Source of the DNA: Arcobacteraceae bacterium
Lineage (GTDB): Bacteria; Campylobacterota; Campylobacteria; Campylobacterales; Arcobacteraceae
Direction: 5' to 3'
DNA length: 64,000 bases
NCBI GenBank assembly: GCA_963662945.1
Contig: OY759974.1
Span: forward strand, 160,001 to 224,000
The position numbers and the translations under genes were made by a program. A model generated the notes under the pieces. That model did not search any database. It was not told where the DNA came from and worked only from the letters and a program-made list of their open reading frames with translations. This document shows, piece after piece, positions 16,708-53,634 of the stretch; positions within the stretch are counted from its first letter, which is position 1; every line of letters begins with the position of its first letter.

Positions 16708-17679
16708 ATGGAAGATTTTAAAATACAAATTAAAAAGAGATTTTCTCAAGAAATTGATAATCTTGATTTCTCTTTAGATATTGATAGTTTAGAGATACGA
16801 TATAACACTATTGTTGAAGAGATTTTTGAAAAGATTAAAATCAAAAAAGAAAACTATTCTATTCCTATTTCAAAAACTTCAAATAACAATATCTGTTGCA
16901 GTAGTGAATTTGATATGGACTCTGGTAAATCTTTTGAAACACTTATTAATTCAAATACAAAAATAAGCTTTGAAAAAACGCCATTAAATGAATCACGAAG
17001 CATACCAAATAATTTTTCTCTTTCTTATGAAATGAAACAATTTGCTAAGTCAAAATTTATACAAAATGTTGAAGAAACTTTTGAGAATTTCAAACTGTAC
17101 TATCAGAGCAAAGGTACTATAAATAGTGACTGGGAAGCTGTTTGGAAACGATGGGTACTGAACCAAAACAAATATAAAAATCATCTTATCAAAACAACTA
17201 TCGATGAGAACCTTGAATTAAAAAATAATTTTTTAAAAATAGCACAAAACTATCTTGCTAAAAAAGATATAGAACTTGAATTTATAAAATTTAAAAATCA
17301 TTATATCTCTAATGGTGATTTAAAAGCATCTTGGGAAAAAGTGTGGGAAAATTGGTGCATCAATCATAAACAATTTAAACCAAAAGAACAGTCACAAAAA
17401 TCAAAAGAGAAGCAAGATTATAAATGGGACTTCAGAAAAGCAAAAGATGTAAGTGATAGAATCAAAGATTGGCTAGAGTTTGAAAAAGGGATAAATTGGC
17501 TTGATGATTACTATTGGAAAGGTAGAACAATACCAGGTATTGGTTGGCAAAAAGTGATGCATCCAGATTTTAACAAAGAGGAGATACTTCTATTTAAAAT
17601 AGATAGTGTTGATGGAAATTATATGTTACAATATCAAAGTGATGAGATAATAGATGCAGAGGTATTAGAAAATGACTAA
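16708..17679 (+). CDS. protein with two tandem DnaT-like / phage replication-initiator C-terminal domains
   Basis: Internal repeats FENFKLYYQSKG...DWEAVWKRW (aa ~97-152) and FIKFKNHYISNG...SWEKVWENW (aa ~163-219). Confidence 0.6.
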   Translation: MEDFKIQIKKRFSQEIDNLDFSLDIDSLEIRYNTIVEEIFEKIKIKKENYSIPISKTSNNNICCSSEFDMDSGKSFETLINSNTKISFEKTPLNESRSIPNNFSLSYEMKQFAKSKFIQNVEETFENFKLYYQSKGTINSDWEAVWKRWVLNQNKYKNHLIKTTIDENLELKNNFLKIAQNYLAKKDIELEFIKFKNHYISNGDLKASWEKVWENWCINHKQFKPKEQSQKSKEKQDYKWDFRKAKDVSDRIKDWLEFEKGINWLDDYYWKGRTIPGIGWQKVMHPDFNKEEILLFKIDSVDGNYMLQYQSDEIIDAEVLEND

Positions 17680-18244
17680 AAAACAACAAGAGTTTTATAG
17701 AATACTTATAAACCAAATGATGGATTTCAACGAAGACTTCCACAAAGAGTTCACAATCAATAGAATTGAACAAATATCTGATGATAATCTCAAATACCTT
17801 CTTGAAGATATTAATACGGACAAAGACAATATAGTAAAGAAAAAAGGGTATATCACTTACGCTAAGTTTATCTACTATGCAGATAAAATGATAGATAAAA
17901 AAATCGAACTTAGTATGAAGCCACAAACTTCAAAGGTAGATGAACTCTATAATAAAAGAGAACTTCTTATAAATACCATACAAAATCAAACAAAATCTTT
18001 GCAAGAACGAAATGAGCTTATAGAAAATCTTAAAAACAGAGTTGTAATGTTTAAAAAAGAAGATGGAAAAAATATCTTAGATGAGATTGACTACTTTATC
18101 ATTGAACAGTTTGGATTTTATAACTTTTTTGATGAAAATAAAAACTATATGATAAAAGAGGAGATAGAAAACTATCTAAAACTCTACACTACAAATCAAA
18201 TGCTACTCAAAGAGAGCGATACAAAAAAACTTATCAATAATTAA
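17672..18244 (+). CDS. hypothetical helical protein, translationally coupled to the DnaT-like gene
   Basis: 190-aa ORF overlapping the upstream gene by 8 bp; no recognised motif. Confidence 0.7.
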   Translation: MTKKQQEFYRILINQMMDFNEDFHKEFTINRIEQISDDNLKYLLEDINTDKDNIVKKKGYITYAKFIYYADKMIDKKIELSMKPQTSKVDELYNKRELLINTIQNQTKSLQERNELIENLKNRVVMFKKEDGKNILDEIDYFIIEQFGFYNFFDENKNYMIKEEIENYLKLYTTNQMLLKESDTKKLINN

Positions 18245-18253
18245 AGATATCCC

Positions 18254-18262
18254 TGCTATAAT
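18254..18262 (+). promoter_or_regulatory. extended -10 promoter of tRNA-Leu
   Basis: TGCTATAAT ending 14 nt before the tRNA 5' end. Confidence 0.7.
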
Positions 18263-18276
18263 TCCAACTCAAAAGT

Positions 18277-18361
18277 GCCGCTGTGGTGGAATGGTAGACA
18301 CGCTAGATTCAAAATCTGGTAAGCTATGCTTGTACCGGTTCAAGTCCGGTCAGCGGTACCA
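18277..18361 (+). tRNA. tRNA-Leu (anticodon CAA)
   Basis: Acceptor stem GCCGCTG/CAGCGGT plus ACCA; D-arm TGGTGGAATGGTAGACA; anticodon arm CTAGA-TTCAAAA-TCTGG; long variable arm; T-arm ACCGGTTCAAGTCCGGT. Confidence 0.97.
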
Positions 18362-18363
18362 CT
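18346..18363 (+). repeat. attL core, 18-bp direct repeat CCGGTCAGCGGTACCACT
   Basis: Identical copy at 27065-27082; comprises the tRNA 3' end. Confidence 0.95.
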
Positions 18364-18475
18364 GACCTATATTTAATACAAATACATAAAACTATATAAA
18401 TATCCATAAATACTAGCCCTATTCTTAATATTGTTCTATAAAAATATATAAAGTTTAATTTAGATACCATTCTTG

Positions 18476-18523
18476 TAATACCTTTTTTGTTACCTTTTAT
18501 ATAAATTTGGTGTTACCTTTTTT
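18476..18523 (+). repeat. putative integrase arm-type sites (TGTTACCTTTT) at the left end
   Basis: Copies at 18488 and 18511, a degenerate copy at 18476; matching copies at the right end (27000, inverted 26974). Confidence 0.7.
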
Positions 18524-18532
18524 GGAGCGTGT

Positions 18533-19678
18533 ATGAAAGATAAGCTTATATCAACAAAATATGAGGGTGTTTACTACAAAGAGTTAAATAAACTTTTCAA
18601 TGGTAAGCCTGACCTATCCTACTATATTATGTATAGAAGTGGTGGAAAACAGATAAAAAAATCTGTTGGTAAAAAATCTATGAAAATGACTACTGCTAAA
18701 GCTTATCAAAAAAGGCAAGATGTCATATACGAAATAAAACACGGTATAAATGAACATAATTCAAAAGATAAAACATTTATAGAACTCCTAGATAAATGGT
18801 ATGAAGATAAAAAAACTAATTTAAAATCTATACATGAAGATTATAATAGACTAAAAAAACATGCAACAATCATACTCAATAAACATATAAGCAATATCAA
18901 ATCATCAGATATAAAAACAATATATGATCATATGATAGATAATGGACTTAGTGAACAAACATTTAAAAGAGTTTTTTCTATGTATAAAAGAGTTATGAGC
19001 CACAGCCTAGCCCATGAATACATTAAACAAGTTCCAAATGTTGTATTTAATAAATCTATCAAAGATAATAAAGTAACAGAGATATACACAGATGATATGA
19101 TAAAAAACTACATAGAAGTGATACAAAACTATCCTGATACAACTATAGCTAAAATAATCATGCTTATACTCAATACAGGTATGAGAAGAAGTGAACCACC
19201 CAAATTAAAATGGTTCAATTATAGCTATGAAAATAGTACTGTTATTATAGAAGATGCAAAAAGTGGTCAAAATGAAACTTATTATCTATCAAATAAAGCA
19301 AAAGAGATTATAGAATCACAAAGAGGATTTACACGATCGTATATATTTGAAGATTATCATAGAAATCCTATCAAAGTAGGAAAAATATCTTATCATGCTT
19401 CAAGGATGAAGCTTATGGCGGGATTACCTGACCATTTTAGACCATTACACAGTCTAAGACATAGATTTGGTACAGAACTAGCAAAAAGCGGTCTTAATGC
19501 CTTTAAAATACAAAAAATGATGACACATAAGGATATTAAAACTACTCAAAGATATATAGACTTAGCAGATAAAGATATCTTAGATGATTTAAACAATGTG
19601 GAGCAGAACTCAAATATTGGGAATATTAACACTAATATAGAATCTAAAATGATAAGAGTAGATATCCATAATAATTAG
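18533..19678 (+). CDS. tyrosine integrase
   Basis: TGMRRSE (R), AKSG (K), HSLRH, MTHKD, TQRY; arm-binding-like N-terminus; adjacent to attL. Confidence 0.95.
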   Translation: MKDKLISTKYEGVYYKELNKLFNGKPDLSYYIMYRSGGKQIKKSVGKKSMKMTTAKAYQKRQDVIYEIKHGINEHNSKDKTFIELLDKWYEDKKTNLKSIHEDYNRLKKHATIILNKHISNIKSSDIKTIYDHMIDNGLSEQTFKRVFSMYKRVMSHSLAHEYIKQVPNVVFNKSIKDNKVTEIYTDDMIKNYIEVIQNYPDTTIAKIIMLILNTGMRRSEPPKLKWFNYSYENSTVIIEDAKSGQNETYYLSNKAKEIIESQRGFTRSYIFEDYHRNPIKVGKISYHASRMKLMAGLPDHFRPLHSLRHRFGTELAKSGLNAFKIQKMMTHKDIKTTQRYIDLADKDILDDLNNVEQNSNIGNINTNIESKMIRVDIHNN

Positions 19679-19704
19679 CTATGCAAGTACTTAAAATATA
19701 TAAA

Positions 19705-19733
19705 TTGTCAAAAATTATAAAATATGCTATAAT
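19705..19733 (+). promoter_or_regulatory. sigma70 promoter of the island TA operon
   Basis: TTGTCA, 17-bp spacer, TATAAT with TGn extension; AAAGGA RBS before ATG 19759. Confidence 0.75.
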
Positions 19734-19758
19734 CACTAAATAAAATGAAAGGATTAAT

Positions 19759-20178
19759 ATGTCTATAGCAATACAAAACAATATGATATTTGCACCAATG
19801 ATGATTAAAGATGTATTAACAGCGTTAAAGGATAAAGCTGTAGATATTAAAGATAAAACTATTTTTAATAGCATGTATAAGATACTAGATATTGCTAGAG
19901 CTGATACTGCTAATGATGCAAAAGAGATTAATAATGATTTAGAAAATATATCAATAGAAGATATAGCAACAATCGAATTTACTCAAGCATTTGAAACATT
20001 AGAATATCTCAAAGATAACTTAATGTCATTAGAAGAACTTTATGCAAATAGTGATAATGCTTATGAAATACAACTTTATGAGATTGTAGATGAAACATTA
20101 GATAATGTTTGGCAAATTATCAATGCTTTTATGTACTTAAACTCGAAACTAGCAAAATACAAACTACAAGCTTCTTAA
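19759..20178 (+). CDS. putative antitoxin (acidic, helical, family not recognised)
   Basis: Upstream of a RelE-like toxin with TAATG stop/start coupling at 20176-20180. Confidence 0.65.
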   Translation: MSIAIQNNMIFAPMMIKDVLTALKDKAVDIKDKTIFNSMYKILDIARADTANDAKEINNDLENISIEDIATIEFTQAFETLEYLKDNLMSLEELYANSDNAYEIQLYEIVDETLDNVWQIINAFMYLNSKLAKYKLQAS

Positions 20179-20471
20179 TGAATATTATATTTGACAGTAA
20201 CTTTTCAAGAACAGCAAATAAATTAATTAAAAAAAGTGATTTAACACAAGAAGCTGTTGATAAAACTATAGAACAATTTAAAGACAATCCTAATTATCCA
20301 TCGCTAGAATTTAAACACATTACTTGTAAAAGAGATAAAAATAAATATTCTCTAAGAATAAATAAAAATTATCGTATTTTAGCTCATAAAATGGATGAGG
20401 AAAACATACTATTTGAATATGTACTAAATCACAAAGATTATGATAGAGCAGTGAAGCCACAAAACTGTTAA
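20178..20471 (+). CDS. RelE/ParE-superfamily toxin
   Basis: MNIIFDSNF...FKDNPNYPSLEFKHI...YSLRINKNYRIL...HKDY; true start ATG 20178. Confidence 0.8.
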   Translation: MNIIFDSNFSRTANKLIKKSDLTQEAVDKTIEQFKDNPNYPSLEFKHITCKRDKNKYSLRINKNYRILAHKMDEENILFEYVLNHKDYDRAVKPQNC

Positions 20472-20619
20472 AACATTCCCCCTCATTACAAAAATAACTT
20501 TCTAAAAAGAGATATCTCTCTGCTGCTAAATGATCTATTCCTGGTACTCGTTGTAGCTGCTACACAAAAACTCTTATAAATACCATAACAAAAGGATTTT
20601 TACAACATCATAACAATTA

Positions 20620-20670
20620 ACTTTTTTTAACTATATTATCACTTTTTTACAACTTTTTTATACTTTTTTA
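20620..20670 (+). repeat. phased ACTTTTTTA direct repeats
   Basis: Copies at 20641, 20652 and 20662, variant at 20620. Confidence 0.6.
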
Positions 20671-20914
20671 TCATTCTTTAGTATCAAGAAAATAAAAAAT
20701 AATCTTTATTAAACAAAAAACTAAATATTCTAGTTGATCTAGTAATGATAGAAAACCTTAATCTCTATAAAGCCTATAAGTATGGGCTTTGTGTTTATTA
20801 ACTACATTCATTAATTTCACACGATCTACAAAAGAACTCAAAAAACTAATTTTATCCATCCATTTAAATCGTATCCTGTTGAGTCACTTACCTTATTTAC
20901 ACTTTTTAAAAATA

Positions 20915-21075
20915 TGCTGTAATTTTGTCGCTGTCCGCTGTGCAGTTTCGCTGTTGCTGTTCGCTGTGCAGTTTGCTGTTTATAGTGCTTTTTTGCTGTT
21001 GCAGTTACAACAAAGCCCCATAAATAGGTACTTTATACAACTGCGGTGTATTATTGCTACTATTACATTACTGCA
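20915..21075. repeat. iteron-like array A (YGCWGT) around a central imperfect palindrome
   Basis: 11 forward copies at 20915-21005, AAAGCCCCATAAATAGGTACTTT at 21012-21034, inverted copies at 21040 and 21070. Confidence 0.8.
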
Positions 21076-21233
21076 ACTGTATTCAAGAGTATTTCAAATT
21101 TATTATATTGATAAGTTTAATATGCCAACTGCATGTATAGATTAAATATTTATACAAATCTATCAAATAAGTAGCCTACTCTATAAAATAATGTATAAAA
21201 TCAGAAATAATCAAATACTTATCAACTTTTTTA

Positions 21234-21530
21234 TGTCTTAATTAAGACAAAACACTCAAAATTAAGACAGATTAAGACACTTTGTCTTAATCTGCAAACA
21301 TCCAAATGGGTATATATGTAAAATATATATAGGTATGTGTCTTAATGTCTTAAATATATAAATAATATTCTTTTTTTACTTTATATACTAGCTTTATGAT
21401 TATTCTTAAATTAAGACGAGATTAAGACAAATTAAGACATTTGTCTTAATTAAGAGGATTTTTTTTACATTTTTCTTTAATATAGCTTAATTTTATAGTT
21501 TTAAAAAGTGAGATTAAGACATTAAGACAC
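21234..21530. repeat. iteron-like array B (TTAAGAC), putative replication origin
   Basis: 8 forward copies (21242, 21262, 21272, 21411, 21422, 21432, 21514, 21522) and 5 reverse copies (21235, 21284, 21339, 21347, 21443) around AT-rich spacers. Confidence 0.85.
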
Positions 21531-21677
21531 ATAGCTCCATATAGAGAAAAAAGAGAGGGATATGTTCATAAATATAAAACATTCAAATGTAATATATTTA
21601 TTAGTTGTGCCTTAAATGGCAATCTAATATGTAATTTGATATGATTCAGTTTAAATAGTTACAAATAAGGTGTTTAA

Positions 21678-22430
21678 ATGATAAAATACATATATGATGA
21701 AGATGGTAATAAAACTGATGTTCAAATACCATTTGAATTATGGGAAAAAATTAAACTCAATTTAATTGATAAACATCTTTCTGATGAATTTGAAGAAATT
21801 GATAATGCGGACAATTTCTATCACACAGACTACTTACATATTCATTATATAGATATTATAGACTTATTTCTCAATAATAATGGCAAAGAAATACAAGAAG
21901 CTTACGAACATTATTTTGATTATTATAATTCGTTATCTGCGTATGATATTGAACTATTGTATATATTTAGAGGAGGTACTTTCTTCAATCTTAGAAATAA
22001 AAACTTCAATAACCATGCAAAGACATTATCTGATATATTTGAATTAACAACTCTAAATAACTTAGCAATAAATGAAGAACAATTTAATAGCATGGTTATA
22101 GAAAGCCATAGAAGAAATGAAATATCATTTTTACAATACTTTAAAATGAATTTTAAAATAAATAGAAAAATAAAATCTATAAGATTAAATAGAAAAACAG
22201 AACGAGATAGATTATTTATTTATGACATGTTACATTCAACATTTACAATTGAAAATATTATTATGGCTAAAGGCTTAGAAAAAACAGAACAAAGTATTAA
22301 TTCAATAAAAAAACATCTTTTAACTATGCTATCAAATTTCTTTTATAATGGTAATAAAGCACAAGTCTATAGAGCACAAAAAGAAGTATCAGAAAGATTA
22401 TTATATACAAATAGTAACTTTAAAATGTAA
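21678..22430 (+). CDS. hypothetical protein with RelB-like antitoxin N-terminal motif
   Basis: AAGG RBS; KYIYDEDGNKTDVQIPFELWEKI resembles the YITDxxGxKxxVxIPxxxYExL antitoxin N-terminus. Confidence 0.7.
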   Translation: MIKYIYDEDGNKTDVQIPFELWEKIKLNLIDKHLSDEFEEIDNADNFYHTDYLHIHYIDIIDLFLNNNGKEIQEAYEHYFDYYNSLSAYDIELLYIFRGGTFFNLRNKNFNNHAKTLSDIFELTTLNNLAINEEQFNSMVIESHRRNEISFLQYFKMNFKINRKIKSIRLNRKTERDRLFIYDMLHSTFTIENIIMAKGLEKTEQSINSIKKHLLTMLSNFFYNGNKAQVYRAQKEVSERLLYTNSNFKM

Positions 22431-22451
22431 TTTAACATATATAGATTGTTC

Positions 22452-22541
22452 AATAAATACATTTTAATATACTTAAATGTATTTATTTAAGCTTAATAAA
22501 AGTTAATTTAGTTCATAATTCCTTAATAAAATACATTTAAG
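22452..22541. promoter_or_regulatory. putative operator sites upstream of the AlpA-like gene
   Basis: Perfect 13-bp inverted repeat AATAAATACATTT (22452) / AAATGTATTTATT (22475); third AAATACATTT site at 22529. Confidence 0.55.
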
Positions 22542-22550
22542 GATATTAAA

Positions 22551-22754
22551 ATGAAACAAATTGAAGACTTCATTACAATTGAAGAGACAAGTCAACTAAC
22601 TGGTTTAACTCCAAAATCACTATCAAACTATCGTTCTAGAAAAGTAAAGTTTCCATTTTACAAAATGGGTGGGCAAATTTGGTACAAAAAATCTGAAATA
22701 CTAGAAATTATAAACAATAGTAGAGTATCTGTATCTACAGAGGTACAGTCATGA
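22551..22754 (+). CDS. AlpA/excisionase-like helix-turn-helix protein
   Basis: 67 aa; FITIEETSQLTGLTPKSLSNYR...PFYKMGGQIWYKKSEI (HTH_17/MerR-like). Confidence 0.85.
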   Translation: MKQIEDFITIEETSQLTGLTPKSLSNYRSRKVKFPFYKMGGQIWYKKSEILEIINNSRVSVSTEVQS

Positions 22755-22960
22755 TACAAGAATACGAAATCAAAGACTACATCAATCAAGAGTTATCTAA
22801 AAATCAAACCATAGAAGTACTAACTGACCATTTAGTGGAACATACAGATATATTAACATTCATAGTAACCAAACACAATGGGGATACAATGAATATATCA
22901 AGAACTAGAAAAATTGCCTATGTAAAAAACTATATTGAGAATGTACAACGATATGGATAA
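22751..22960 (+). CDS. small hypothetical protein
   Basis: ATGA overlap with the HTH gene; GAGG RBS. Confidence 0.65.
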   Translation: MIQEYEIKDYINQELSKNQTIEVLTDHLVEHTDILTFIVTKHNGDTMNISRTRKIAYVKNYIENVQRYG

Positions 22961-23201
22961 TCTATTAAGAGATTTAAAATACTTCTTACTACACCATTAT
23001 GAGCAAGGGAAAAGTAAAAAGGTACTTTTAGGGCTACTTAATGAACTAGAAGATGAAAAAAAAGCTATATTACAAGTATATTTTAAATTAAAACAAGAAG
23101 ATATAAAACCAATTTTAGTAAAACAATTACTCATGAAGTATATCAATGAGATAACCATACAAATTGATAATAAGCGGAAAAAATTGAATAAGATAATATA
23201 G
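22953..23201 (+). CDS. small hypothetical protein
   Basis: ORF 22935-23201; likely start MDNLL overlapping the end of the previous gene. Confidence 0.55.
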   Translation: MDNLLRDLKYFLLHHYEQGKSKKVLLGLLNELEDEKKAILQVYFKLKQEDIKPILVKQLLMKYINEITIQIDNKRKKLNKII

Positions 23202-23385
23202 CTATAAATTTCCCTATATATAGATAATACAATCACATAATTATGGGATTGTGGGGTAATTAATTCTTAAGGGTAATTCTTAAGTGAGAGGATAAGGGAG
23301 AGGAATTGAAACAAAATAAAATTAAAATTGAAGTGTCTAAAAAACACTAATCAATATAAAAAAACTTTAAACAATAGGAATAAAA

Positions 23386-25134
23386 TTGCAACATTATAGC
23401 TTACAAACAGAACAATCAGTATTAGCAACTTTAATTGATAACTATGATAAGTTTGAAAAATATCATACTCAATTAAAACCTGAAACATTTTTCTATGAAG
23501 CTAACCAAAGTATCTATAGTGCTATGCAAATTCTCTATAAAGATGATAAGCCTATAGATGCAGACTTTATAAGGCAAGAGCTAGATAAACAAGGAACTTC
23601 TATAGATGATTTCTTAATAGCAGTTATTACAAGTACTCCTACGGCAGTTATTGAAAAATATATTAAACAACTGCAGAAAGCACATGAAGAAAGAGAGGCT
23701 TTATCAGTAACTACCCTACTAAGAGAAGGGAAAATATCTGTAGAGCAACTGCAAACTAAACTTTCCAAGATACAAAACTTATACGATCGTGTTGAAAACA
23801 ATGAACTATCAAATAAAACTATTAATTTAGATAAACTATCTCCATTTTTAAAAGATGTGATCACTGACTTGCATAGTATAAATGAACATCCTATAAATAT
23901 GATACTTTCTACTGTCTTAACCTCAATGGGTGGACTTATCGGTGCTAGAGCTAAAGTAACAAATGGAATGTTTGAAGTTTATCCTGTAATATGGAGTATC
24001 ATAGTTGCCCCGTCATCATTAGCAACGAAATCAACACTTACTAGATATACCAAAAAATGTATCTTTGGTGAGCTTCAAGATAATCTATTTGAAGAATATA
24101 GAGGAAGACTGGAAAAATACAAAGAAGAAAGAAAAGCCTATAATAATCTATCGAAAGAAGATAAAAGAAACGAGATAGAACCTGAAAAGCCTGAACCACA
24201 ACTTCTTATATTTCAAAATGATGGTACACCTGAAGCAAAACTCAAATCTTTAGAAGATAATCCAAATGGTGGAGTTGTGTATTATGATGAGATGAAAGCA
24301 GAACTAGAAAAAACCAACAACGATAAAAGCTATAAAGCATTAAAAACATCTACCTTTGATGGAGATAGATTTCATAAAAGACTTGTAAATGGTGGTAGTA
24401 TCATACTTGAACATCCTATATTATGTGAAAATGGACTTATAACAGAACAATGGCTGTTAGATGTTATTCACAAAGATGATATCGTGAGTGGATTTATGGC
24501 AAGGTTTCTATTTAGTTACAATAAAAAAGAAGATTTTAAACCACTACAGATAAAACCACTTAGTATAAAAGTAGAAAAATATGCAAAAGTTGGAGAGTTT
24601 ATAATAGAAATGTTAGAACTTGAATGTAAAGAGCCAAATTTATTTAATCTTACTCTTGAAGCTAGAAATTATTACACTAATTGGTTTAATGACTTGTCAG
24701 ACACCATCTTCTATACTGAAACAGATGAAGAGATTACATCTAGCTATAGACTTACTACCTATGTTCTAAAATTTGCACTTATTAGCTATATTTTTGATAT
24801 GGCATATCAAGAAAATAATATCATCAAAAGTGGTTCAATAGCAATACCACTAAAATACATAAAAGAAGCTATATATCTTTTTGAGATATTTAGAGATGAA
24901 AATGACAAAGTACTTGCATTGTTTCAAAAGAATAATAAACTACATAAAACACTTGATGATATCTCAATGAAACTACAAAATAAGATTAGAGCTACTAAAG
25001 ATAAAAGAATATCAAAAACAAATGCAACTAATAGTATTAGAGGATTAAATGCTAAAAAATTAGATGAATTTATTGAGAAAAATTTATTTAGAATTGAGCA
25101 GATAGATAGAGTTAATTATATCTTTGAATGTTGA
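23386..25134 (+). CDS. DnaB-helicase N-terminal domain fused to a DUF3987/YfjI-type P-loop domain (putative replicase)
   Basis: SLQTEQSVLATLI...LKPETFFYEANQSIYSAM..L...KPID is DnaB_N-like; IVAPSSLATKS (Walker A-like), TPEA, YYDEM (Walker B-like) and SGFMARFL are YfjI/DUF3987-like; TTG start with AGGA RBS. Confidence 0.8.
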   Translation: MQHYSLQTEQSVLATLIDNYDKFEKYHTQLKPETFFYEANQSIYSAMQILYKDDKPIDADFIRQELDKQGTSIDDFLIAVITSTPTAVIEKYIKQLQKAHEEREALSVTTLLREGKISVEQLQTKLSKIQNLYDRVENNELSNKTINLDKLSPFLKDVITDLHSINEHPINMILSTVLTSMGGLIGARAKVTNGMFEVYPVIWSIIVAPSSLATKSTLTRYTKKCIFGELQDNLFEEYRGRLEKYKEERKAYNNLSKEDKRNEIEPEKPEPQLLIFQNDGTPEAKLKSLEDNPNGGVVYYDEMKAELEKTNNDKSYKALKTSTFDGDRFHKRLVNGGSIILEHPILCENGLITEQWLLDVIHKDDIVSGFMARFLFSYNKKEDFKPLQIKPLSIKVEKYAKVGEFIIEMLELECKEPNLFNLTLEARNYYTNWFNDLSDTIFYTETDEEITSSYRLTTYVLKFALISYIFDMAYQENNIIKSGSIAIPLKYIKEAIYLFEIFRDENDKVLALFQKNNKLHKTLDDISMKLQNKIRATKDKRISKTNATNSIRGLNAKKLDEFIEKNLFRIEQIDRVNYIFEC

Positions 25135-25145
25135 AAGGAAATACC

Positions 25146-26057
25146 ATGACACCACAAGTAAAAAAACTATTAGTACAATATAAAAGATATAGCTACTTTG
25201 TAGAGCAATATAATACTTATCTAGTATTAAAAGGTCATTGTAAAAATACAACTAATACATATATGAGACAAGCAAAAAAGTTTTTTATATTTATGAATAA
25301 AGATCTTATAGATAGAGATATGGTTATGAAATTTGTTATGCAACAGAAAACTACAGAGTCATCAACTAAAAATCATATTATATCTTGCACTAACAATATC
25401 ATAGAATTTGCTGAAAGTATAAATAAGTTTGATGACAATAAAAAAGGATTTAAACTATGTTCGGTACGAAATCATAGAAAAATACCTAAGATACTATCCT
25501 ATGAAGATATATCTGTCGTATTAGATACTCTAAAGAATAATAGAAAAGATTGGATGAGCTATAGGGATTATGCACTATTTATATTTTTATACGCAACAGG
25601 TGTGAGAGTAAGTGAATGTATAGAACTAACAACAGCTGATTTAATAGAAGATAAGCTCATAAAAGTAAATAATGGTAAAGGTAGTAAGGATAGAATAGTT
25701 CCTATAGCGATGAAAGCAGTAGAAGCACTAAAAGAATATATAGAACTTTGTCCCTTTGATACATCAAAAAACTTGTGGGTTAACTACATGGGTAAAAAGA
25801 TAAGTAGAATTTCTATATTTAAAATCACTAAAAATTGTGCAAATATAAGCCCACATAAACTAAGACATAGCTACGCAACACATTTATATAATAATGGTAT
25901 GGATTTAATGGTTCTTAGTCAATTATTAGGTCATGAGAATATTGAGACAACAGAGATATATCTTCATGTAGATAATAAGCAACTAAAAGAATGTATAGCT
26001 AAACACCACCCTATTAATAATTTAACTCAAGAGCAAAGGCAATCTATATTATGTTAA
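25146..26057 (+). CDS. XerC/XerD-like tyrosine recombinase
   Basis: RDYALF..LYATGVRVSE, GKGSKDRIVP, SPHKLRHSYATH, LLGHE, TEIY; AAAGGA RBS before ATG 25146. Confidence 0.93.
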   Translation: MTPQVKKLLVQYKRYSYFVEQYNTYLVLKGHCKNTTNTYMRQAKKFFIFMNKDLIDRDMVMKFVMQQKTTESSTKNHIISCTNNIIEFAESINKFDDNKKGFKLCSVRNHRKIPKILSYEDISVVLDTLKNNRKDWMSYRDYALFIFLYATGVRVSECIELTTADLIEDKLIKVNNGKGSKDRIVPIAMKAVEALKEYIELCPFDTSKNLWVNYMGKKISRISIFKITKNCANISPHKLRHSYATHLYNNGMDLMVLSQLLGHENIETTEIYLHVDNKQLKECIAKHHPINNLTQEQRQSILC

Positions 26058-26878
26058 TCAATATGTTTGCAAAAGATGAATATTTAGGGAAAAAAGGTGG
26101 AAGTGGTATTCCTCAATTTATAATTTCTAAAATGCCTAAGCACGATATTTATATTGAAGCTTTTTTAGGAACTGGTGTAATTATGGCAAAGAAAAAAAAA
26201 GCTAAAGTTAATATTGGTATTGATAAAGATATATCTATACTGCAGAAAACAAACTTTACAGATGAATACCAAATATTACACGGAGATAGCATAATATTTA
26301 TTAAGTACCTTATAGAAAAATACATCTATGACGGAACTGTATTAGTATATCTTGACCCACCATATTTGCCTGAAACTAGAACATTTTTTAAAAACTGTAA
26401 ATATAAACACGAATTAGTACTTGATAGACATATACAACTATTAGATATCTGTACAAAATTATCTATGTTACATGATAACTTGCATTTTATGATAAGTGGT
26501 TATGCATCACAGCTTTATACAACTATGCTCGAGCATAGACATAATTGGAAACATTTTGAAACTAAAACAATGAGTAGAGGTGGAGTAAAAACAGAACATT
26601 TATGGACTAGTTTTAATCCTGATGAATATTTAAAACACGACCTTAACTATGTTGGCCATAATTTTACAGATAGACAAAGAATAAAAAGAAAAGCTAAAAG
26701 ATGGTTAAACAATTTAGAAAATATGGCTTTAGATGAAAAAACATTACTACTTGAACTGATCCATCATAGATATAAAAATCTATTTAACCAGGTATCAAAT
26801 AAAGCTGCTTACATAGATAATATTGACAATGGTGCACTAAAGTCACTTTTGTCTATAGGTGATGAAAGACAAAAATAG
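26051..26878 (+). CDS. orphan DNA adenine methyltransferase (D12/Dam-like, phage type)
   Basis: YLGKKG, YIEAFLGTG SAM-binding motif, YLDPPY catalytic motif, MISGY. Confidence 0.88.
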   Translation: MLINMFAKDEYLGKKGGSGIPQFIISKMPKHDIYIEAFLGTGVIMAKKKKAKVNIGIDKDISILQKTNFTDEYQILHGDSIIFIKYLIEKYIYDGTVLVYLDPPYLPETRTFFKNCKYKHELVLDRHIQLLDICTKLSMLHDNLHFMISGYASQLYTTMLEHRHNWKHFETKTMSRGGVKTEHLWTSFNPDEYLKHDLNYVGHNFTDRQRIKRKAKRWLNNLENMALDEKTLLLELIHHRYKNLFNQVSNKAAYIDNIDNGALKSLLSIGDERQK

Positions 26879-26881
26879 CAT

Positions 26882-26914
26882 AAAAAAAAGAGCAAGACTC
26901 ACGCCCTACTCTTT
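26882..26914 (-). terminator. intrinsic terminator
   Basis: Minus strand AAAGAGTAGGGC-GTGA-GTCTTGCTCTTT-TTTTT: 12-bp stem with three G-U pairs and a GNRA loop. Confidence 0.8.
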
Positions 26915-26949
26915 CAATACTTCCAACCACGAAAGCCCCTTATATAAGT
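26882..26949 (-). ncRNA. predicted ~70-nt small RNA
   Basis: Minus-strand TGCTATAAT at 26964-26956 and a minus-strand-specific terminator ending in T8; no ORF. Confidence 0.6.
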
Positions 26950-26955
26950 ACCAAA

Positions 26956-26964
26956 ATTATAGCA
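26956..26964 (-). promoter_or_regulatory. extended -10 promoter for the predicted sRNA
   Basis: Reverse complement of ATTATAGCA is TGCTATAAT, identical to the tRNA and TA promoters. Confidence 0.6.
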
Positions 26965-26973
26965 AAAGAATCT

Positions 26974-27012
26974 AAAAGGTAAATATATTAATGCCTAAAT
27001 GTTACCTTTTTT
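26974..27012. repeat. putative integrase arm-type sites at the right end
   Basis: TGTTACCTTTTTT at 27000-27012 is identical to 18511-18523; inverted AAAAGGTAAA at 26974-26983. Confidence 0.7.
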
Positions 27013-27064
27013 AAGAAAAATAACAACAATTCCCTTTATTAAAGGCATTATAACTATATTAGAA

Positions 27065-27082
27065 CCGGTCAGCGGTACCACT
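27065..27082 (+). repeat. attR core (duplicated tRNA-Leu 3' end)
   Basis: CCGGTCAGCGGTACCACT identical to 18346-18363. Confidence 0.95.
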
Positions 27083-27158
27083 TTTTTTCATTTATATTTC
27101 AATGCCTTTGTCAAATAATATTTCTGTAAACTTTTAACTTTTACAAAAGCAAATTTTC

Positions 27159-27734
27159 CTACTTCATTACTCTTATATTACTTGGCAATAACTTCATAAC
27201 AGGCTTCTTTTTAGGTCTATTTTCAATCCAATTTCTATATATCTCTAAAACTTTATCTCTAGGTATCTCCAACGATGGATTATTTGTAAATGCCAATGCC
27301 TCTAAAACCCGTCTTTTCGTTACAACATTTTGTTGAGACTCTTGAAGTGCTATTGTTATAGTGTCTTGATTGACTAAAATGGTTCGCAAAAAAGATTCAC
27401 ATTGACCAATTTTTTGATAAGTTGTATTTGATAAGTTTTTTAATCTTTTATACTCTTGTTCAAGTCTATTTAGATATGTAGTTCTTAAGATTGACATATC
27501 TCTTGATGTCGCCTCTTTTTTATAAAGTTCTTTGTAGTATAACTTACCAAACTGTAAAGAGATCAGTTCAGCTTGTTTATAAGCTTTACTCGTAAGAGTA
27601 TTTTGTGATGTTGATAATATTAAAAAGTTTGCTGAACAAAAACCAATACCCTCAAGATTTTCTTCATAAAACTTCGGATCTGCTAGTACTACTGAAATCA
27701 TTAGACCATAAATAAACAGTAGTTTTTTCATCAT
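27159..27734 (-). CDS. hypothetical exported protein
   Basis: Signal peptide MKKLLFIYGLMISVVLA; directly follows dapE. Confidence 0.75.
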   Translation of the reverse strand: MMKKLLFIYGLMISVVLADPKFYEENLEGIGFCSANFLILSTSQNTLTSKAYKQAELISLQFGKLYYKELYKKEATSRDMSILRTTYLNRLEQEYKRLKNLSNTTYQKIGQCESFLRTILVNQDTITIALQESQQNVVTKRRVLEALAFTNNPSLEIPRDKVLEIYRNWIENRPKKKPVMKLLPSNIRVMK

Positions 27735-52992: not shown

Positions 52993-53634
52993 TTAACTTG
53001 CTAATACATCATCACCGAATACATCTTCTCTTATGTTTCTTTTTTTCACGTAATTATTAAGACCAATATGATTATTGTAACCAAGTACTTTTGCTATTTT
53101 TCTTACACTTAAACCAACACCTAATAACTCTTCTATTTTATCTCTTTGTTGATCAAATTTTGATTTTTGAATAGTTCCTTTTGGTTTACCCAAAGATACA
53201 CCATCAAGTTTTTTTGCTGTTAATGCTTCTTTAGTTCTTAGACTCATTAAGTCTTTTTCAAGATTGATAGTCATACCTATAACACCTAATATCATTTTTG
53301 TAAGCATATCATCTTTACTGACAAAATCTAAATTTTGAGTTACACTGATTATTCTTACTCCATGGTTTAGTAAAAATTTTATATTCTTCAAAATAGATGC
53401 TGTTGTACGTCCAAATACATTGATATCATAAACAACTACTACACATCCATTTTTACAAGTTTCTAAAATTTTATGAATGTTAGTTTCTTCATCTGGAACA
53501 TTTACTTCTACTTCAATATTTTTATCTAATTGAAGTTTATTTTCTTTAATATATTTTGCAATTCCTAACGCTTGTGCATCTGTATATTCATCATTGTTTT
53601 TATTCACTCTTATAAAACTTACTACTTTTTGCAT
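52993..53634 (-). CDS. serine recombinase (resolvase) homolog lacking the catalytic serine
   Basis: Resolvase fold with EKDLMSLRTKEAL...LGKPKG and C-terminal HTH, but FIRVN replaces YxRVS and INVFGR replaces LDRLGR. Confidence 0.8.
   Translation of the reverse strand: MQKVVSFIRVNKNNDEYTDAQALGIAKYIKENKLQLDKNIEVEVNVPDEETNIHKILETCKNGCVVVVYDINVFGRTTASILKNIKFLLNHGVRIISVTQNLDFVSKDDMLTKMILGVIGMTINLEKDLMSLRTKEALTAKKLDGVSLGKPKGTIQKSKFDQQRDKIEELLGVGLSVRKIAKVLGYNNHIGLNNYVKKRNIREDVFGDDVLAS

Follow-up and report, generated by a model that had tools for sequence, protein, structure and literature searches.

Results

The stretch of DNA analysed here (the window, 64,000 nucleotides) contains, in an Arcobacteraceae bacterium, a mobile island of 8,737 bp (18346–27082) that sits at tRNA-Leu(CAA) and carries an exact 18-bp repeat at each end. 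The 8,737 bp are an insertion, because the same site is empty in a congener (G133, locus L043), where the right-flank sequence follows directly after tRNA-Leu as an empty attB; in three other congeners the site is unoccupied or differently occupied. The repeats and the empty site bear out the preliminary description of an 8.7-kb element between att repeats at this tRNA, and its statement that the protein genes all lie on one strand also holds, as all ten element ORFs are intact and on the + strand. They run in the order integrase, ParE-like toxin–antitoxin (TA) pair, iteron origin, orf250, HTH_17 gene, two small ORFs, Rep, Xer-like recombinase and D12 methylase. The flanks hold a 267-aa gene, which we take to be trpC, with two orphan ORFs, and an orphan ORF with a 367-aa gene, presumably dapE-like; there is no fis site, and a search of 18000–27500 against Rfam gave the tRNA as its sole match. 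The features are as follows.

18277–18361, +: tRNA-Leu(CAA), the integration target, whose 3' end is attL (ARAGORN; Rfam tRNA 56 bits)
18346–18363, no strand: attL core, exact 18-bp repeat (repeat match; G133 empty site)
18464–18524, +: left-arm repeats, two exact copies of TACCTTTTTT and one with one mismatch; putative arm-type integrase sites (repeat search)
18533–19678, +: tyrosine integrase (int), 381 aa (PF00589 88 bits; phrog_1; alignment)
19705–19733, +: promoter-like site before the TA pair, 11/12 matches with extended −10, a consensus match only
19759–20178, +: orf139, 139 aa, putative antitoxin by position only; cargo
20178–20471, +: ParE-like toxin, 97 aa from the ATG at 20178; cargo (PF24732 33.9 bits, cut-off 24.4, E 3e-8)
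20926–20980, +: GCTGT-rich repeat array, unexplained
21234–21529, no strand: predicted replication origin, an AT-rich non-coding stretch with 12 TTAAGACA iterons that lie in both orientations (motif and ~200-bp core conserved with Rep)
21678–22430, +: orf250, orphan core gene that adjoins or overlaps int in relatives
22460–22553, +: 32-nt inverted repeat whose right arm spans the alpA ribosome-binding site and start codon (−27 kcal/mol, z −5.0)
22551–22754, +: alpA, HTH_17 (AlpA/excisionase-type) protein, 67 aa (PF12728 30.2 bits, cut-off 27; phrog_66 'excisionase and transcriptional regulator')
22751–22960, +: orf69, small core gene whose start overlaps alpA by 4 nt (clusters with 16 ORFs of other integrated elements)
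22935–23201, +: orf88, small lineage-specific ORF
23386–25134, +: rep; DnaB N-terminal domain (residues 1 to ~130), DUF3987 helicase (169–505), C-terminal winged helix (526–581)
25128–26057, +: Xer-like tyrosine recombinase, 309 aa, whose start overlaps rep by 7 nt (PF00589 130 bits)
26051–26878, +: orphan D12-class N6-adenine methylase with DPPY motif; cargo (PF02086 28 bits)
26886–26915, −: GC-rich hairpin within a 79-bp block kept in G115 and L070
27003–27012, +: right-arm copy of TACCTTTTTT (repeat search)
27065–27082, no strand: attR core, exact 18-bp repeat (repeat match to attL core)

All three exact matches to TACCTTTTTT in the 64-kb window fall within the two att arms. Capsid, terminase, relaxase and T4SS families were found in none of the element's ORFs by Pfam, PHROGs or NCBIfam, in agreement with the preliminary reading, and no oriT-like feature was recognised, although divergent relaxases and oriT mimics could escape such searches.

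Recombinases, small core genes and cargo

The integrase, earlier called intact, keeps R218, K243, H306, R309, H332 and Y341 invariant among seven aligned homologues. The second recombinase, also noted earlier, does the same for R160, K184/K187, H243, R246, H269 and Y278 (again seven homologues). Its best NCBIfam model is TIGR02225 (XerD) at 204 bits and it shares 41% identity with a chromosomal paralogue of 278 aa; as that score lies under the model's equivalog cut-off of 330, orthology to XerC, XerD or XerH (the chromosome-dimer resolvases) is ruled out and the protein is called Xer-like only. The 67-aa product of alpA was expected to be an AlpA-like HTH protein, which is right in so far as it belongs to the excisionase-type HTH_17 family (PF12728), but it is not Pfam's Phage_AlpA (no match to PF05930). 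The inverted repeat over its start folds well, yet it is not conserved in six relatives and was rejected as a family feature. The orf250 protein folds into an antitoxin-like beta hairpin at its N-terminus with a helical domain after it, and the gene overlaps int by 8–20 nt in the tRNA-Ser subtype. Fold searches with orf250 gave at best E 0.68 (Foldseek against the PDB) and Z 3.5 (VIA-align, wide), the ESM atlas gave no usable match for either orf250 or orf69, and prediction of an Int–orf250 complex scored 0.00, which gives no answer.

At the cargo positions, the TA pair of the preliminary description stands for its ParE-like toxin, which scores above the family cut-off and whose ATG overlaps the orf139 stop codon by 1 nt, whereas orf139 matches no family in Pfam, PHROGs or NCBIfam and its label of antitoxin comes from its place beside the toxin. 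The adenine methylase was identified correctly, as its PF02086 match and DPPY motif indicate. Both the TA region and the methylase, the latter precisely, are missing from relative G115 and from a variant in run X5, and cargo varies between near-identical backbones. Elsewhere in the family the slots hold KAP NTPase/PDC-S49, PIN_8, HEC-09 NYN, Fic, MNT/HepT, DUF3800/PDC-M04A and methylases, and YafQ in four loci.

Replication module

Rep had been described as a DUF3987-type replicase, and this is upheld by the match to PF13148 (95.4 bits); no primase domain was recognised in the protein. Its N-terminal domain (PF00772, 62 bits) superposes on the N-terminal, primase-binding domain of Helicobacter pylori DnaB (3gxv) with a TM score of 0.87 and an rmsd of 1.7 Å over 114 columns, and its C-terminus has the fold H-b-H-H-b-b. 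DUF3987 is a 5'–3' helicase by experiment, according to PMC11724360. The Walker A motif of Rep is deviant: it reads APSSLATKST, with A208, P209, S210, S211, K215, S216 and T217 as invariant columns, and this counts against our best explanation, that of a self-excising, self-replicating element.

The iteron array noted in the preliminary description was located to 21234–21529, which holds 12 of the 16 exact TTAAGACA sites in the window (about 6.5 would be expected in the whole 64 kb). Clusters of 6–12 copies of TTAAGACA accompany Rep proteins of 50–98% identity in 13 relatives, seven of which are contigs without int, orf250 and alpA, and in a Rep clade at 45–48% identity ACTTATAC-type repeats take the place of TTAAGACA; the iteron motif follows the Rep lineage. 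The GCTGT array is present in the window and in G115 and absent from 13 other relatives, and was discarded as a part of the family origin.

Relatives

About 20 relatives with the same six-gene core (int, orf250, alpA, orf69, rep and a second tyrosine recombinase) were found in Arcobacteraceae, in a second family (Sulfurimonas, by the source name of one protein) and in metagenomes, and the element belongs to a recurring Campylobacterota family, as had been suspected. Of 184 Arcobacteraceae genomes, 7 encode a full-length homologue of Rep, as do 2 out of 400 more genomes drawn from across the phylum, these two belonging to a single genus of a different family; three loci in genome contigs and 19 in metagenome contigs add to these. 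Five tRNAs (Leu, Thr, Phe, Ser and Pro) serve as insertion sites. The arrangement that had been proposed for a synteny search, int-TA-ori-alpA-DnaB_N/DUF3987-xer-dam, is conserved in its core, which runs int – orf250 – alpA – orf69 – (small ORF) – rep – second recombinase, but the TA pair and the methylase are swappable cargo. As all delimited relatives measure 7.5–9.4 kb and share the core, the element did not arise by deletion from a larger prophage or ICE, a possibility that the preliminary description had left standing.

A sister family is represented by eight metagenome contigs, replicons of ~8.5–10 kb whose Rep is 50–53% identical and whose iterons are the same. They are without int, orf250, alpA and xer and have instead two small serine recombinases, an AAA ATPase, a YdjM-like protein and methylases. 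Two of them were assembled as circles (terminal overlaps of 127 and 92 bp) and gene order is circularly permuted between contigs. In appearance these nearest relatives of the Rep/origin module are small circular plasmids.

Searches for excision and for helpers

No circle junction, and no joint skipping exactly 18364–27082, was present in the assembled contigs of four public runs, which cannot show absence. In run X4 contig depths were ~1,000–1,250 in the element, 538 in the left flank and 844 in the right flank, figures that are not copy numbers. IMG/VR yielded no loci either with Rep alone or with a 14-sequence Rep alignment. Among 50,697 phage records there were eight partial protein matches to Rep, mostly to the DnaB N-terminal domain and none covering 80%, and the DNA of 19100–27082 had no similarity to phage records; none of the element's genes was recognised as phage-derived, and the host genome contains no members of the HK97 capsid, TerL, portal or Terminase_6N families. 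A search of 72,556 plasmid records returned 10 partial Rep matches, all below 60% identity and none covering 80%. VirB4 and the Relaxase/MOBQ-type relaxase families are likewise absent from the host genome, which has one T4CP-like gene outside the element. A literature search found no paper on phage satellites in Campylobacterota.

Discussion

The layout described above most resembles that of the phage-inducible chromosomal minimalist islands (PICMI) of Vibrionaceae, in which, according to PMC10803314, int is followed by a gene that overlaps or adjoins it and then by alpA, a small ORF, a DUF3987 'prim' and a defence hotspot. The PICMI model given there comprises an integrase (PF00589, PF00239 or PF07508), AlpA (PF05930 or PF12728), a 'primase' (DUF3987, PF13148, or DUF5906) and, as the hallmark according to its authors, integration downstream of fis; our element has the first three (PF00589, PF12728 and PF13148) but not the fis site. 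The two share a small size (6–9 kb), int with a gene next to or overlapping it, a gene of HTH_17/AlpA type separated by small ORFs from that of a DUF3987 replication protein, an accessory or defence hotspot past the latter, and the lack of capsid and packaging genes. They differ in that the present element, known here from sequence alone, lies at tRNA genes in a Campylobacterota host, has an extra core tyrosine recombinase and the orphan orf250 and orf69 families, and encodes a Rep with DnaB N-terminal domain and winged helix that goes with a mapped iteron origin. 'Arcobacter' occurs 0 times in the supplement text of PMC10803314, which makes it likely, not certain, that the element is absent from those authors' 135 PICMI-like elements.

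With P4-like satellites and PICI (PMC10085698) the element has in common int, an AlpA-type regulator, a replicase with a C-terminal origin-binding domain acting on iterons, and hotspots of defence genes. It carries three of the five PICI core components (int, AlpA-type gene and replicase) where at least four are needed, and int, alpA and replicase alone make a 'Type C PICI', a class set aside as ambiguous by the authors (PMC10085698). Neither terS nor capsid-morphogenesis genes were recognised (Pfam, PHROGs), and psu, delta, sid and epsilon had no PHROGs or Pfam match among the element's ORFs, although small divergent proteins could be missed. The helicase of the P4 satellite is of alpha type, whereas that of this element is DUF3987. 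SGI1 is a replicative integrative mobilisable element with int and xis, its own initiator and iterons, a TA system that stabilises the excised form and helper-dependent transfer; roughly five times the size of the present element, it carries mobilisation genes and is linked to IncC plasmids, and neither mobilisation genes nor such a link was recognised here. The tRNA-integrated islands with an AgaPP PrimPol and a PriCT-DUF3987 helicase (PMC11724360) are similar in tRNA site, integrase, a DUF3987 helicase that drives replication, and defence cargo, but they have a separate primase-polymerase and PriCT where our element encodes no primase, and the DnaB N-terminal domain of Rep occupies the position of PriCT in AgaPH.

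The reading that we prefer, at a rough probability of 0.45, is that of an intact integrative element that excises and self-replicates, a 'hitcher' in that it carries no genes for cell-to-cell transfer. Excision and autonomous replication are well supported, the individual biochemical steps being ones that we infer. The integrase and the HTH_17/AlpA-type protein, perhaps with orf250, would recombine the 18-bp cores to give a circle; the winged helix of Rep would bind the TTAAGACA iterons and open the origin, with Rep assembling as a DUF3987 5'–3' helicase; and the DnaB-like N-terminal domain may recruit host DnaG primase, as the element encodes none itself. The second recombinase would then resolve multimers or concatemers, and the swappable cargo (ParE-like TA pair and orphan methylase) may stabilise or protect the element. 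For transfer a helper would be needed, most likely an infecting phage: the element probably rides on a phage or other helper, and transfer by a helper phage, whose identity we infer, is plausible.

A serious rival is a plasmid-like or mobilisable lifestyle, in which a low-copy circular replicon (Rep/iterons, Xer-type resolvase, TA) parks in a tRNA gene by means of Int and AlpA and is spread not in phage capsids but by a conjugative element, through an oriT or relaxase that escaped recognition, or by natural transformation; we consider it quite possible, if short of probable. Multimer resolution by a recombinase and addiction through a TA pair are classic means of maintaining a plasmid and count against a phage helper, as do the lack of loci in IMG/VR, of matches in the phage records (over 80% of Rep, or in DNA) and of HK97 capsid, TerL, portal and Terminase_6N families in the host genome. 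A second recombinase is found in 16/16 integrated elements covering that region, where at least two types that are not orthologous (XerD-like and SAM_6-type) occur, as expected of a needed resolution function. The int-less sister replicons that share Rep and iterons, two of them circular and with permuted order, the want of any match to the family in virus collections and the T4CP-like gene of the host all point the same way. On the other hand, the element has no recognised relaxase, oriT-like feature or T4SS gene (Pfam, PHROGs, NCBIfam), its host is without VirB4 and MOBQ-type relaxase families, the plasmid records contain no close Rep relative and no contig of the integrated type was circular as assembled.

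The preferred reading of an excising, self-replicating element can be carried further, to a first Campylobacterota phage-satellite family in which a Rep/iteron replicon from a small circular plasmid was joined to a tRNA-integrase/AlpA/orf250 excision module, Rep mimics the host DnaB N-terminal domain to capture primase, and the obligatory second recombinase turns packaged or rolling concatemers into monomer circles in a new host, compare Cre of P1; this we put forward as speculative and rather doubtful. That the island is instead an immobile, vertically inherited remnant whose genes are kept for their cargo (TA pair and methylase) is improbable, for although the window and G115 share a tRNA site with 90.5% identity in the element against 89% in the left flank, compatible with common descent, and the assembled contigs gave no excision signal, all ten ORFs and the catalytic residues of both recombinases are intact, the two att cores have not diverged by a single base, the three other congeners mentioned above carry either nothing or something else at the site, relatives occupy five different tRNAs across two bacterial families, and backbones that are nearly identical carry unlike cargo.

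Islands of small size that combine int, alpA and a DUF3987 protein are common. This family is a compact and well-delimited test case, with six core genes (two of them orphans), a mapped origin and a plasmid-like sister group, and it would allow one to test satellite against mobilisable plasmid, the role of the second recombinase, and the replacement of an element-encoded primase by a DnaB-like domain. Its variable slots single out candidate defence genes of Arcobacteraceae and Sulfurimonas.

Boundaries and gene content of the element

By ARAGORN and Rfam, tRNA-Leu(CAA) lies at 18277-18361, and an exact repeat consisting of the tRNA 3' bases and two bases past the tRNA is found at 18346-18363 and again at 27065-27082. 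In the congener G133 (locus L043) the site is empty, an identical tRNA-Leu being followed directly by DNA homologous to the window right of 27082, so that the 8,737 bp between the repeats is an insertion whose ends are base-precise, and the att boundaries at tRNA-Leu(CAA) proposed in the preliminary description hold. The same place is occupied in the congeners G138 and G131 by about 660 and 180 bp, respectively, of different DNA. The element occurs as one copy in the 2.5-Mb host genome, where the only other DNA-level resemblance to it is a Xer paralogue.

Features of the element and its left flank (families from Pfam, PHROGs and NCBIfam)
16708-18244: orphan ORFs of 323 and 190 aa, between the gene that we take to be trpC and tRNA-Leu
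18533-19678, +: int (PF00589)
19759-20178, +: orf139, no family match
20178-20471, +: ParE-like toxin (PF24732), its ATG overlapping the orf139 stop by 1 base
21678-22430, +: orf250, orphan
22551-22754, +: alpA, HTH_17 protein (PF12728; phrog_66 'excisionase and transcriptional regulator')
22751-23201, +: orf69 and orf88, each overlapping the gene before it
23386-25134, +: Rep, replication protein (PF00772 and PF13148)
25128-26057, +: Xer-like recombinase (PF00589)
26051-26878, +: D12 adenine methylase (PF02086, DPPY motif)

All credible ORFs of the element are on the + strand. None of them has a Pfam, PHROGs or NCBIfam match to a family of capsid, terminase, portal, relaxase or T4SS proteins, and both recombinases, when aligned with homologues, show invariant catalytic R-K-H-R-H-Y residues, which agrees with the earlier view of an intact-looking element with no recognised capsid, terminase, relaxase or T4SS genes. 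Overlaps of 4-26 nt in the ORF coordinates of alpA/orf69/orf88 and of rep/xer/methylase suggest two translationally coupled operons. The 1.2 kb at 20472-21677 contains no credible gene; the single long ORF there overlies a repeat array and has no match. A GCTGT-rich repeat array at 20926-20980, beside the putative origin, is present only in the window and in the relative G115. An inverted repeat at 22460-22553 (32 nt, 91% complementary, folding at -27 kcal/mol, z -5) has a right arm that spans the alpA ribosome-binding site and ATG; as a family feature this hairpin was rejected, the left arm being diverged in G115 and the structure not kept in other relatives.

The two ORFs of the left flank are 90-94% conserved in G115, and the 323-aa ORF has two Trp-rich internal repeats and a weak PHROGs match to 'replication initiation protein' (E 3e-7). 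As the same flank occurs in congeners with an empty site, both ORFs lie outside the element. Beyond its attR copy G115 has unrelated DNA (at least 1 kb, with a 232-aa ORF) as far as the end of the contig (L035 14558-15589), and DNA homologous to the right flank of the window is on a separate contig (L042); the extra DNA may be a second, tandem insert at the same tRNA. In contigs from X4, a public sequencing run of the same organism, word depth is about 1,000-1,250 inside the element vs 538 in the left and 844 in the right flank, contig depth not being equivalent to copy number.

A family of related elements

Full-length Rep homologues (54-98% identical) were found in seven of 184 Arcobacteraceae genomes, including the window's own, the remaining matches in this search being confined to the N-terminal domain of DnaB encoded on the chromosome. 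When the query was restricted to DUF3987, two matches came from a sample of 400 further genomes across the phylum, both in one genus of another family; one of the two has a protein whose source is given as Sulfurimonas. Three Rep loci lie in genome contigs and 19 in metagenome contigs, and a protein search with Rep gave 104 clusters in which the sole organism names are Arcobacter/Arcobacteraceae, Sulfurimonas and uncultured Helicobacter. The synteny search suggested in the preliminary description thus uncovered a recurrent family with a conserved core order: every integrated relative has tRNA, int, an orf250 homologue, alpA, an orf69 homologue, a small ORF, rep and a second tyrosine recombinase, except that in a tRNA-Ser subtype the second recombinase stands between alpA and rep. 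The integrated elements sit at five tRNAs: tRNA-Leu(CAA), Thr(GGT), Phe(GAA), Ser(GGA) and Pro(TGG). Where the repeat at the tRNA end (12-21 bp) was identifiable the elements measure 7.5-9.4 kb, and because relatives keep the same gene order at this size, the alternative that the element is a deletion remnant of a larger prophage or ICE is refuted. Both the gene parts of the element and its family are well supported.

All 16 integrated elements in which the region is covered carry the second recombinase (two contigs stop short of it), and it is of at least two unrelated types, XerD-like in the window, G115, L070 and the Ser subtype, and Phage_int_SAM_6 in four relatives (G099, G048, G163 and L071) and by similarity also in G050 and L072. 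This function therefore seems to be required, whichever protein provides it. Every integrated element has a member of the orf69 family (17 ORFs in one cluster), for which Pfam, PHROGs and the ESM atlas give no known relative.

Judged from gene content, the TA pair and the methylase are placed outside the core. G115, with a Rep 98% identical, lacks the methylase and has, in the opposite orientation, a KAP-NTPase (PADLOC PDC-S49) at the position of the window's TA pair, and a variant in X5, a marine-sediment metagenome run (90-95% similar), lacks the TA region and has the methylase gene exchanged for 70 unrelated letters (joint 26057 to 26883). Cargo past rep/second recombinase in other relatives comprises PIN_8, HEC-09 NYN, YafQ (four loci), Fic, an MNT/HepT pair, DUF3800/PDC-M04A and methylases.

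Replication module

Of the 16 TTAAGACA sites in the window, 12 are packed into 296 bp, where both orientations occur. Clusters of 6-12 copies are found at the same position in G115, downstream of the second recombinase in G099, G048, G050 and G163, and also in seven metagenome contigs that have only Rep in common with the window. Across the TTAAGACA-bearing relatives a core of about 200 bp (21260-21470) shows 68-80% similarity. Where Rep identity is 45-48%, the elements carry ACTTATAC-type repeats in place of TTAAGACA, and in one relative with 71% identity the repeat is GTTAGACA. That the repeat tracks Rep, not orf250, argues for binding of Rep to the TTAAGACA iterons, with the cluster as putative origin.

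AlphaFold models Rep (mean pLDDT 77.6) in three parts: an N-terminal domain that superposes on that of Helicobacter pylori DnaB (3gxv: TM 0.87, rmsd 1.7 A), a P-loop domain in the middle (weak match, MCM-like), and a C-terminal helix-strand-helix-helix-hairpin, i.e. a winged helix. We recognised no primase domain in Rep. As DnaB binds primase through its N-terminal domain (a description also in the title of 3gxv), Rep would recruit host DnaG through its DnaB-like N-terminal domain. For DUF3987 proteins, 5'-3' helicase activity is demonstrated in the portion of PMC11724360 consulted.

The same iterons and a Rep 50-53% identical occur in eight metagenome contigs (L075-L082) without int, orf250, alpA or xer. 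These carry two small serine recombinases, an AAA ATPase, a 217-aa ORF, a YdjM-like protein and methylases, with no recognised capsid or transfer genes. Gene order is circularly permuted from contig to contig and two of them have identical ends, of 127 bp in L079 and 92 bp in L080; the contigs resemble circular replicons some 8.5-10 kb in size. The island's replication module would accordingly be one shared with plasmid-like molecules. A frame at about 53047-53622 of the window (- strand) shares 29% identity with the first serine recombinase of these replicons (tblastn E 3e-19). Excision and self-replication of the element are likely.

Relation to known satellites and mode of transfer

In the sections of PMC10803314 consulted, phage-inducible chromosomal minimalist islands (PICMI, Vibrionaceae) are modelled on int, AlpA (PF05930 or PF12728), DUF3987 and fis, and their iolg/icg genes, adjacent to int, are essential for excision. 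The element has three of the four model genes (int, AlpA-type and DUF3987) but lacks the fis hallmark. In its relatives orf250 occupies the iolg/icg position, 21-35 bp past int in Arcobacter-type relatives and with an 8-20 nt overlap in the tRNA-Ser subtype; in the window and G115, by exception, cargo and origin separate the two genes. Only 25 representatives of orf250 (E up to 0.001) were found among 1.84 billion proteins; its model is confident (pLDDT 84), a structural search gave no convincing match, with only the first 45 residues weakly resembling antitoxin N-termini, and prediction of an Int-orf250 complex gave no answer. Under the SatelliteFinder model for PICI (PMC10085698), whose main text does not mention Campylobacter or Helicobacter, the element would fall in the ambiguous 'Type C'. 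It is outside PICMI and PICI as defined and, with no PHROGs or Pfam match to psu, delta, sid or epsilon in its ORFs, probably outside the P4-like satellites too. Our literature searches found no paper on phage satellites in Arcobacter or Campylobacterota or on an Arcobacter genomic island with an integrase at tRNA-Leu.

The host genome gave no match to the HK97 capsid, TerL ATPase, portal and Terminase_6N families or to the VirB4 and MOBQ-type relaxase families, and has a T4SS coupling-protein-like gene about 100 kb from the element (G000:C1:288518-289024; PF02534, 45 bits, 641-aa frame). Scans with Rep did not find the family in IMG/VR, and no close kin turned up among phage and plasmid records. 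An infecting virulent helper, as PICMI has, is compatible with these blanks, yet they lend the satellite reading no positive support. By analogy, the element would work like a minimalist satellite or a replicative mobilisable island.
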